Shown here: piece after piece, positions 34,703-36,808 of the stretch
Layout of the letters: the number at the start of each line of letters is the position of its first letter
How positions within the stretch are numbered: the stretch's first letter is position 1
Notes under the pieces: generated by a model
Told to the model about the DNA's origin: nothing
The model's database searches: none
The model's input: only the letters and a program-made list of their open reading frames with translations
Translations under genes and position numbers: made by a program
NCBI GenBank assembly: GCA_025449575.1
Contig: JANWJB010000024.1
Coordinates: 1-49,269 of the forward strand
Length of the DNA: 49,269 nt
Reading direction: 5' to 3'
Origin: Acidobacteriaceae bacterium
GTDB taxonomy: Bacteria > Acidobacteriota > Terriglobia > Terriglobales > Acidobacteriaceae

Positions 34703-36808
34703 ATGTCGAAAGCTACAAAAATCGCGGAGAAGGCCGTTACGGTTGCCGCGCAAGGCGCTTGGTCCGTCTTTGAGCGGGTCAACCGAATCAGCCCCAACCC
34801 TTCCTTCATCCCGAGGTGGTCGGAAAAGCCGCTGCTGAAGTCGTATCAGAAGACGAAGCCCCCTCTGGGCTGGCCGCGCACGACCGACTCTCTGTGTCCG
34901 AAATGCGTGCCGGAGATCCGGCAGCAGATTTTGGATGGTAAGTTACCGCACGAGGTTTTGCTCAACGAGAAAGTCGGCGAGATCAAGGCGCAGATCATCG
35001 AGCGCGACGGCAAAATTTTGATGGTGAAGGACTGTCCCAAGCATGGGCATTTCGAAGATGTGATGTCCATCGACACCGCTTTCTTCCGCCATCTGGAAGA
35101 GGTTTTTCCGGGGCGCGACATTCGTGCTCACAATGACGAGAAGCTGCACAACCACGGCACCTCCACCGTGATACACGGCCGCGGGTCGGTACTGACCATC
35201 GACTTAACCAACCGCTGCAACATGATGTGCGACCCCTGCTTCATGGACGCCAATCAGGTGGGCTTTGTCCATGAGCTGAAATGGGAAGAGATCAAGACCA
35301 TGCTGGACAATGCGGTGCAGATCAAGCCGCGGCGCCAAATGTCGGTTCAGTTCTCCGGTGGCGAGCCGACCATCTCTCCTTACTTCCTGGACGCCATCGC
35401 CTATGCCCGCAAGGTTGGCTACAACTCTGTGCAGGCAGCCACCAATGGCATCGAGTTTGCGAAAAGCAAGGAGCTTTGCCGCGCCGCCGCCGAAGCCGGC
35501 CTCCGTTATGCCTATCTGCAGTTCGACGGCATCGGCAACGCGGCCAACTCCCATCGCAAGGTGGGCAACCTCTTCGACGTGAAGCTGCAGGCCATTCACA
35601 ATCTGCATGAAGCCGGCGTGGATATCGTTCCCGTGACGACGATCATCAACGGCATCAACAACGAGCAGGTCGGCCACATCATCCAGTTCGCTCTGGACAA
35701 TCCCAAGAAGATCAACTTCGTCAGCTTCCAGCCGGTCTCCTTCACCGGCCGCGATGAAGGGTTGAGCGACGAGCGGCGCATCGCCCAGCGGTATACGCAA
35801 AGCCACTTGGCGCACGACGTGAAGAGGCAGACCGGGCTGGGCGAGCCGACGCGCGACTGGTTCCCCATCAGCTTTATGGGCACCTTCTCCGACTGGGCTG
35901 ATCTCGTACATGGTCCCCAAGCGGACTGGGGCCAACTCTCCTGCGGCTGTCACCCTGACTGCGGAATGGGTATGGCGCTGATGATCGACAAGGAAACGAA
36001 GGAAGTTGTTCCGGTCACCGCGTTTCTCAACGCCGACCGCTTGGCGAAGGACATTGCCAAGATCAATGACGCGGCGCGGGGTAAGTTCCTCTCCATTTTG
36101 GGAGTCTCGCTTGCTCTGTTGCGCAATTACGATCCGACCAAGTCGCCCAAGCACTTCAAGATCACCGATCTGCTGGCCAAGTTTGACAAGTGCTTCGGCG
36201 CTACCGGCCGCAGCTATGGCAAGGTGAGTGGCGATCGCACCATGGCCGATATCGAGCAGCGTCGCGCGGATCGCTGGAACTTCCTCTTTATCGCTAGCAT
36301 GTGGTTCCAGGATCTCTTCAACTATGACTTCCGCCGCACCGAACAATGCATCATCCCTTACGCTACCCAGGAGGGTGAAATCTCCTTCTGCGCTTACAAC
36401 ACCGGCGTGGGCTGGCGGAACATCATTGAGAAGATGCACATGACCTCGACGCTCACCAAGTGGTACGAGGAGCATGGGCGGCATGAAATCTTTGCCGGCG
36501 GCAAGAAGGTGGGAATGAACGAGGCCAAACATTCGCTGGTGCTCAATCAGGAACACGTCACCGCTGCCGCCAACGACACTCTGGACAAGCTGGGCATTGC
36601 CAAGAACGCTCGCGAGGAGAAGTTGCGGGCGCGCGACGCCAAGCTGAAGCAGGACGCTAGCGATGCGAATATGGCGCGTCTCTACCGGGAACACATCCTG
36701 GGCGAGAAGCCGCCGGAAACCGGCTTTATTCCGCTCACCAACCTCACCAACACCGCCGCTCAGGCGGCTCCTCCGCCGGCGAAAGAAGAGCCGGTGATGG
36801 GCGACTGA
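34703..36808 (+). CDS. radical SAM enzyme with Tes/GDGT-MAS-like architecture (candidate membrane-spanning lipid synthase)
   Basis: AGGAG RBS. CxxxCxxC at C172/C176/C179 (CNMMCDPC, nt 35216..35239). N-terminal Cys/His knuckles SLCPKC ... DCPKHGHFEDV. C-terminal Cys clusters SCGCHPDCGMG and CIIPYATQEGEISFCAYNTGVGWR. Radical SAM assignment is about 0.9; the Tes-like subfamily assignment is about 0.5. Confidence 0.85.
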   Translation: MSKATKIAEKAVTVAAQGAWSVFERVNRISPNPSFIPRWSEKPLLKSYQKTKPPLGWPRTTDSLCPKCVPEIRQQILDGKLPHEVLLNEKVGEIKAQIIERDGKILMVKDCPKHGHFEDVMSIDTAFFRHLEEVFPGRDIRAHNDEKLHNHGTSTVIHGRGSVLTIDLTNRCNMMCDPCFMDANQVGFVHELKWEEIKTMLDNAVQIKPRRQMSVQFSGGEPTISPYFLDAIAYARKVGYNSVQAATNGIEFAKSKELCRAAAEAGLRYAYLQFDGIGNAANSHRKVGNLFDVKLQAIHNLHEAGVDIVPVTTIINGINNEQVGHIIQFALDNPKKINFVSFQPVSFTGRDEGLSDERRIAQRYTQSHLAHDVKRQTGLGEPTRDWFPISFMGTFSDWADLVHGPQADWGQLSCGCHPDCGMGMALMIDKETKEVVPVTAFLNADRLAKDIAKINDAARGKFLSILGVSLALLRNYDPTKSPKHFKITDLLAKFDKCFGATGRSYGKVSGDRTMADIEQRRADRWNFLFIASMWFQDLFNYDFRRTEQCIIPYATQEGEISFCAYNTGVGWRNIIEKMHMTSTLTKWYEEHGRHEIFAGGKKVGMNEAKHSLVLNQEHVTAAANDTLDKLGIAKNAREEKLRARDAKLKQDASDANMARLYREHILGEKPPETGFIPLTNLTNTAAQAAPPPAKEEPVMGD

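Follow-up and report, generated by a model that had tools for sequence, protein, structure and literature searches.

The closest described system is the archaeal tetraether synthase (Tes), or GDGT-MAS, of M. jannaschii (MJ0619; structures 7TOL/7TOM). This enzyme has four metal sites, namely a rubredoxin-type Fe site (C9-X2-C12...C33-X2-H36), an N-terminal [4Fe-4S] cluster bound by C73, C77, C80 and one His, the radical S-adenosylmethionine (SAM) cluster and a C-terminal [4Fe-4S] cluster (Lloyd et al., PMC9433317). The C-terminal cluster has a labile ligand, Met439, beside the fully conserved Tyr459, and a substrate-sulfur intermediate forms there (PMC9433317). The pocket of GDGT-MAS binds ester-linked phosphatidic acid (PMC9433317). 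In bacteria, Zeng et al. 2022 reported 456 Tes homologues and proposed a role for them in the synthesis of brGDGTs (branched glycerol dialkyl glycerol tetraethers; PMC8941075). Here we describe a Tes/GDGT-MAS-like open reading frame (ORF) in a 49,269-nt stretch of DNA, the window, from an Acidobacteriaceae bacterium (GCA_025449575.1, contig JANWJB010000024.1, positions 1 to 49,269). The ORF is genuine, intact and strongly conserved, and the Tes/GDGT-MAS superfamily is where it belongs. Rather than a canonical Tes, it is a member of an Acidobacteriota subfamily without the N-terminal cluster and with extra termini.

The ORF is complete at 34703..36808 (+) and encodes 701 aa and a stop codon from an ATG start. 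A Shine-Dalgarno-like AGGAG, read directly from the sequence, lies at 34692..34696 (+), 6 nt 5′ of the ATG. The N-terminus is kept from Met1 onward in 71 orthologues, which supports this start. An earlier note on this DNA had quoted a set of Cys/His motifs in a 701-aa protein, and all of them were found: SLCPKC (C65/C68), DCPKHGH (C111/H114), CNMMCDPC (C172/C176/C179), SCGCHPDCG (C414/C416/C420) and C549...C563. Each of the eleven cysteines in these motifs is 100% conserved in the 71 orthologues. The non-motif cysteines are less well kept (C259 in 60% and C497 in 46%). The charged, Ala/Lys-rich tail that the note described is also present; residues 600-701 are rich in Ala, Lys, Leu and Glu and balanced in charge, with 15 K+R and 15 D+E. 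No transmembrane segment was predicted in the 701-aa ORF.

The family of the ORF was identified by profile, by sequence and by fold. Pfam recognized Radical_SAM PF04055 at residues 168-330 (E 2.8e-18) and Zn_ribbon_HMPTM PF23545 at residues 58-122 (E 3.2e-13). The top NCBIfam model was the Tes equivalog NF045702, with 325.8 bits over model positions 2-483 of 486. This score is below the curated 450-bit cut-off, and NCBI would therefore not name the ORF Tes. When the PDB was searched by sequence, GDGT-MAS (7TOL/7TOM) was the sole strong match (E 4.9e-62, residues 93-587), with MoaA as the runner-up (E 1e-5).

An AlphaFold2 model was built from a 37-sequence alignment, with a mean predicted local distance difference test score (pLDDT) of 84.7 and a predicted template modelling score (pTM) of 0.85. 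Foldseek matched this model to 7TOM with an E of 5.4e-36 and a template modelling (TM) score of 0.86, normalised to the crystal chain, over 560 aligned columns. The runner-up was again MoaA, which matched in the core only (E 4e-9, TM 0.52). The four-domain fold, including the helical lipid-pocket domain, is present in the model. Since the 7TOM match extends over the whole crystal chain and the next fold match is limited to the core, the multi-domain architecture is shared specifically with GDGT-MAS. The earlier note had assigned the ORF to the Tes/GDGT-MAS family and proposed these profile and structure comparisons. The assignment is the best one by profile, PDB sequence and fold, and no unrelated radical SAM subfamily gave the best profile; the other models matched only the core and were far below their cut-offs.

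To compare the metal sites, MJ0619 residues 15-491 were rebuilt from the PDB-search alignment and aligned with the ORF and graded representatives. The Fe site is retained as C65/C68/C111/H114, where MJ0619 C33/H36 align to C111/H114. In the 37-sequence alignment C68 and H114 are invariant, and C65 and C111 are at least 90% conserved. These four ligands lie in a rubredoxin-like zinc-ribbon/Fe domain (aa 58-122, 34874..35068, +), which is the region matched by PF23545.

The radical SAM core (aa 161-378, 35183..35836, +) contains the PF04055 match and retains the CX3CX2C motif as C172/C176/C179, invariant in the ORF's clade. The SAM-binding GGEPT motif is kept at 219-223. In the SAM-closing loop, FQPVSFTGR, Gln268/Ser271/Arg275 of MJ0619 align to Q343/S346/R350. 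Q343 and R350 are invariant in the clade, and S346 is replaced by Ala in one representative.

The C-terminal auxiliary-cluster and lipid-pocket domain (aa 379-590, 35837..36472, +) lies within the 7TOM fold match and carries C414/C416/H417/C420, M533, C549, Y553 and C563. MJ0619 C338/C455/C470, which we take from conservation rather than from coordinates to be the three cluster ligands in 7TOL, align to C420/C549/C563. Met439 aligns to M533 and Tyr459 to Y553. These five residues are all invariant across the sister clades described below. C414 and C416 were considered as extra ligands specific to the subfamily and rejected, since archaeal-type sequences commonly have C416 and some of them have C414.

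The N-terminal [4Fe-4S] site is different. MJ0619 C73/C77/C80/H83 align to a gap or K, H151, S154 and I157 in the ORF, where the aligned stretch reads HN-HGTSTVIH, and residues 112-171 are without any Cys. The linker at the position of the archaeal cluster motif (aa 123-160, 35069..35182, +) contains 0 Cys and is His-rich (H143, H149, H151, H158). The sole internal segment of low confidence in the AlphaFold2 model, residues 142-148 (pLDDT <50), is also in this region. The ligands are missing throughout the Acidobacteriota subfamily and invariant in 11/12 archaeal-type representatives. The ORF is therefore predicted to hold two [4Fe-4S] clusters and one Fe site, not three clusters. The earlier note had given the ORF the MJ0619-type layout and had said that loss of the auxiliary-cluster cysteines would speak against it. 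The Fe site, the radical SAM core and the C-terminal cluster cysteines are in place, whereas the N-terminal auxiliary [4Fe-4S] cluster has no counterpart and its ligands are lost.

An exhaustive search through 1.84 billion cluster representatives returned 596 clusters with E <= 1e-30. Archaeal-type representatives with the N-cluster ligands scored 474-584 bits on the Tes model, and representatives without them scored 204-414 bits. The exception is P0252 (510 aa), which scored 584 bits on the Tes equivalog and is without the three N-cluster cysteines. A strict tie between loss of the N-cluster and failure at the Tes cut-off is broken by this protein, and N-cluster loss has thus happened within canonical Tes too.

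The ORF's clade is large, with more than 8000 matches, and is separate from the archaeal-type sequences, to which the ORF is 29-34% identical. At least 596 GTDB species representatives carry the gene. Across Acidobacteriaceae, other Terriglobales, Bryobacterales and Korobacteraceae it is 76-91% identical, and cultured carriers include Acidipila rosea, Granulicella aggregans and Tunturiibacter psychrotolerans. The mean orthologue identity of 81.7%, compared with 49-53% for the syntenic neighbours RlpA, MutY and M48 peptidase, points to unusually strong purifying selection. In Thermoanaerobaculia and Polarisedimenticolia there are sister clades at 53-57% identity, which share the ligand signature and have extensions of the same kind.

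Both termini of the subfamily are extended. There are 64 residues before the first Cys knuckle in the ORF (about 57-64 in the subfamily), compared with ~12-15 in the compact archaeal-type sequences. The N-terminal extension (aa 1-57, 34703..34873, +) consists of a helix predicted at 3-26 and, after it, a KPLLKSYQKxKPPLGWPR segment that is conserved in the subfamily. At the other end, 7TOL stops near ORF residue 587, and the ORF continues for ~110 aa (aa 591-701, 36473..36805, +). This C-terminal extension has a conserved charged helical block (helix 636-664), a variable, indel-bearing Pro/Ala linker and a terminal motif. The terminal EE(P/T)V(M/A/S)GD is invariant in the 71 orthologues despite the variable linker before it. 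Such a terminal peptide on a flexible tether suggests, speculatively, a docking or plug element. More speculatively still, the EEPVMGD peptide may recruit an external reductant that replaces the lost relay cluster.

Further, more divergent Tes-like paralogues were also observed in Acidobacteria. P0137 (Terriglobus roseus DSM 18391, WP_014786616.1), P0153 and P0184 are 34-41% identical to the ORF. All three still have the radical SAM cluster and Fe site but neither the cysteines of the C-terminal cluster nor the conserved Tyr. To judge from this loss of C-terminal ligands, they probably do different chemistry.

The homology, fold, ligands and spread described above make the ORF a candidate acidobacterial membrane-spanning lipid synthase, and we rate the chance that it is one as slightly better than even. 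The enzyme would be soluble or peripheral and would represent an Acidobacteriota-specific subfamily of the Tes/GDGT-MAS superfamily. By homology to GDGT-MAS, the C172/C176/C179 cluster would reductively cleave SAM, and the 5′-deoxyadenosyl radical would take H from the terminal carbon of a lipid tail in the hydrophobic pocket. The C-terminal [4Fe-4S] cluster (C420/C549/C563, plus M533 as a labile fourth ligand) would capture the substrate radical on one of its sulfides. With a second SAM turnover and a second tail, the C-S intermediate would be resolved into a C(sp3)-C(sp3) bond. The substrate in Acidobacteriaceae would be the iso-C15:0 chain of a glycerophospholipid. The product would be the C30 iso-diabolic acid (iso-DA) backbone of membrane-spanning tetraesters, mixed ether/esters and brGDGTs. 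The terminal geometry of iso-C15:0 is that of phytanyl and GDGT-MAS accepts an ester-linked lipid, which makes iso-diabolic acid the most likely product. As the N-terminal relay [4Fe-4S] cluster is absent, electrons must come via the Cys3His iron site, an external partner or both. Electron delivery or membrane docking may be what the conserved N- and C-terminal extensions are for.

According to the literature, subdivision 1 and 3 lineages that carry the gene make iso-diabolic acid or brGDGTs. E. aggregans, which makes both, has a single Tes homologue with 32% identity and an E of 4e-61 (PMC8941075). The subfamily has 29.4-32.7% identity to MJ0619 with E of 1e-53 to 1e-62, and these statistics match those of the E. 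aggregans homologue. Closer Tes homologues, with 40-42% identity to MA_1486, were reported in Ca. Koribacter versatilis and Ca. Solibacter usitatus (PMC8941075). In a later study, "one or both" of the Tes homologues of S. usitatus were invoked (Halamka et al. 2023, PMC10087280). As described in the papers that cite it, Chen et al. 2025 (GCA 401:190) linked the Koribacter iso-DA tetraesters to a Tes homologue, and this link appears correlative. The membrane-spanning lipid synthase proposed by the earlier note is a reasonable candidate role. However, this functional hypothesis is not new, as Zeng et al. 2022 (PMC8941075) and Halamka et al. 2023 (PMC10087280) had already put it forward; the new part is how the subfamily is defined. 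That aerobic soil Acidobacteriota have in this subfamily their long-sought synthase of iso-diabolic acid (the C30 membrane-spanning diacid), and build the carbon backbone of brGDGTs with it, is in our judgment an even bet.

Several observations weigh against this function. The score below the Tes cut-off and the loss of the N-terminal [4Fe-4S] ligands are two of them. Tes homologues were reported in just 3/14 iso-DA-producing Acidobacteria, and an alternative, independent pathway was favoured (PMC13159169). That screen used Maeo_0574 as the query with thresholds of E <= 1e-50 and identity >= 30%. When we applied these thresholds with MJ0619 as a stand-in for Maeo_0574, 64/72 orthologues passed, so a threshold artefact behind the "3 of 14" is not clearly supported. 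Thermoanaerobaculia carry sister-clade members, and the cultured representative of this class is not listed as an iso-DA producer. This enzyme class is oxygen-labile and the hosts are mostly aerobes. No lipid-biosynthesis genes flank the ORF in the window, and synteny is weak across 79 related loci, with RlpA in 26 of them and MutY in 15. Our literature search found no genetic or biochemical test of any acidobacterial Tes homologue.

The same observations can be read in another way. The ORF may be a Tes-superfamily paralogue that uses the same radical and auxiliary-cluster chemistry for a different job and is not the iso-diabolic acid synthase. Such an enzyme could act on another hydrophobic substrate, make another tail modification, carry out intramolecular macrocyclisation, or form a C-S or C-C bond in a product that does not span the membrane. 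The sub-cut-off score, the separate clade with low identity to archaeal-type sequences, the lost N-terminal cluster and the two conserved extensions gained would all be consistent with this. So would the published 3/14 phyletic mismatch (PMC13159169) and the further paralogues in the same family, such as P0137 of Terriglobus roseus. In addition, Korobacteraceae and Bryobacterales carry the subfamily, and the closer Tes homologues of Koribacter and Solibacter (40-42%, PMC8941075) might be the ones that make membrane-spanning lipids. On the other hand, the whole catalytic apparatus of GDGT-MAS is kept, including the equivalents of Met439 and Tyr459, and the fold match extends through the lipid-pocket domain. 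E. aggregans, reportedly with one Tes homologue, still makes iso-DA and brGDGT (PMC8941075), and the gene context points to no alternative substrate. Taken together, we regard a different job as possible but rather doubtful.

Two other functions were considered against the membrane-spanning lipid synthase. Many orthologues are named 7,8-dihydro-6-hydroxymethylpterin dimethyltransferase (HMPTM) by the Joint Genome Institute (JGI), and the Pfam name Zn_ribbon_HMPTM points the same way. However, the JGI and Pfam names both derive from the original annotation of MJ0619. That activity was not corroborated, and MJ0619 is a tetraether/macrocyclic archaeol synthase with lipid in its active site (Lloyd et al., PMC9433317), so the HMPTM role is effectively refuted for this founding member. 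The Pfam scan of the ORF gave no cobalamin-binding or methyltransferase domain. To our knowledge, methanopterin biosynthesis is not expected in Acidobacteriaceae, which also counts against HMPTM, and we consider this function extremely improbable. A SPASM/twitch-type peptide or cofactor maturase, or a TrsS-like enzyme, is very unlikely. Weak NCBIfam matches were obtained to TrsS (206 bits), NirJ/AhbC/AhbD, MoaA, PqqE and several SPASM maturases, and PDB matches to MoaA, SkfB and PqqE. These matches are limited to the radical SAM core (roughly residues 93-378 or 160-360). TrsS (NF045646) reached 206 bits over residues 93-378 only, against a cut-off of 490, and radical SAM families other than TrsS reached 27-81 bits against cut-offs of 180-650. 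The SPASM/twitch models among them gave core-only scores of 27-45 bits against 265-650, and there was no Pfam SPASM match. The structural matches of these families were core-only with TM <=0.63, and no precursor peptide or cofactor genes are adjacent to the ORF.

The genes around the ORF are housekeeping genes, and the statement of the earlier note that no lipid genes adjoin it holds. On the upstream side are Fpg, a GH95-like protein, an M48 peptidase, an RlpA-like lytic transglycosylase and a small ORF that is conserved, and on the downstream side a DUF4440 lipoprotein, MutY, a CorC/CNNM transporter and Opp permeases. A lipoyl synthase (Radical_SAM and LIAS_N) at 17620-18597 (-) is a second radical SAM enzyme in the window; it serves as a reminder that oxygen-labile radical SAM enzymes routinely work in this mostly aerobic lineage.

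The note had also named a long non-coding region as a neighbour of the ORF, and ~600 bp upstream are indeed without an intact gene. The only recurrent immediate neighbour in the related loci is a signal-peptide protein on the same strand, ~300 bp upstream, in 30/79 loci, and no Pfam family matched this protein. In the window, a decayed 3′ remnant of its gene with an in-frame stop lies at about 34087-34458 (+). Similarity can be recognised in no more than the ~120 codons at its C-terminal end (tblastn E 6e-5 to 4e-4). This remnant explains much of the non-coding region. As the gene is decayed in the window, it is not required, and we rejected it as a conserved operon partner. A regulatory RNA upstream of the ORF was also rejected, as an Rfam scan of 33700-37800 with E up to 1 gave no family. 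A sigma-70 promoter scan upstream found none, and terminator-like sites were at chance level. A 98-aa ORF at 33791-34087 (-), between the RlpA-like gene and the Tes-like gene region, has no Pfam match, is conserved at ~44% identity in 12 related loci and probably encodes a genuine small protein.

On the downstream side, the lipoprotein gene is bracketed by two elements that resemble miniature inverted-repeat transposable elements (MITEs), as the note had described. These elements are ~115 nt long, lie at 36878-36992 and 37484-37600 in opposite orientation and have terminal inverted repeats of ~26-28 nt; 0 matches are expected by chance. A third MITE-like terminal repeat was found at 31275-31300, between the GH95-like and M48 genes. 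The called GTG start (36895) of the DUF4440 ORF, 36895-37485 (+), is inside a MITE-like element. The true start is probably the ATG at 37009 (MNRARKF...), which would give a lipoprotein signal peptide with an LTGC lipobox.

Few continental proxies for palaeotemperature and pH are used more widely than the distributions of brGDGTs. Acidobacteria are the main cultured producers of these lipids, and the enzyme behind the membrane-spanning backbone is known there only as a candidate. Our analysis sharpens the definition of the candidate to a distinct subfamily that is present throughout the sampled Terriglobia, has diagnostic extensions and reaches other acidobacterial classes. The subfamily offers knock-out, expression and in vitro studies something concrete to aim at, and a subfamily-specific hidden Markov model could replace the borderline BLAST thresholds used so far. 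If the subfamily is indeed the iso-DA synthase, a marker for it would map the producers of brGDGT precursors in soil, including Thermoanaerobaculia and Polarisedimenticolia.

Among the known systems, the bacterial membrane-spanning lipid synthase Mss (Thermotoga maritima Tmari_0825; Thermoanaerobacter ethanolicus WP_129545148.1) is a radical SAM enzyme like the ORF. Coupling of two fatty acyl tails at the omega or omega-1 carbon is proposed or shown for Mss and proposed for the ORF's family. Mss was reported to have a Tes-like catalytic architecture (PMC13274423). It is nevertheless a different family. Published searches found no Tes homologue in Thermotoga or Thermoanaerobacter (PMC13159169). 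Of the Acidobacteria that Sahonero-Canavesi et al. 2022 examined, none had an mss homologue (PMC13159169), which counts in favour of the lipid-synthase reading of the ORF.

The canonical-type Tes homologues of Koribacter and Solibacter share the superfamily, the phylum and the proposed lipid role with the ORF (PMC8941075). By their reported statistics they are much closer to archaeal Tes, which would place them in the canonical group. Sampled representatives above the Tes cut-off keep the N-terminal cluster, with the exception of P0252.

Compared with archaeal Tes/GDGT-MAS (MJ0619, 7TOL/7TOM, NF045702), the ORF has the same multi-domain fold (TM 0.86). Common to both are the Cys3His Fe site, CX3CX2C, GGEPT, FQPVSFTGR, the C-terminal three Cys with the labile Met, and the Tyr, and neither has a transmembrane segment. 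At ~31% identity, the ORF differs in that all four ligands of the N-terminal [4Fe-4S] cluster are missing and that it has an extra ~57-aa N-terminal and ~110-aa C-terminal extension, the latter with an invariant terminal motif. The host also differs, being a mostly aerobic bacterium with lipids of iso-branched fatty acyl chains in place of phytanyl ethers.

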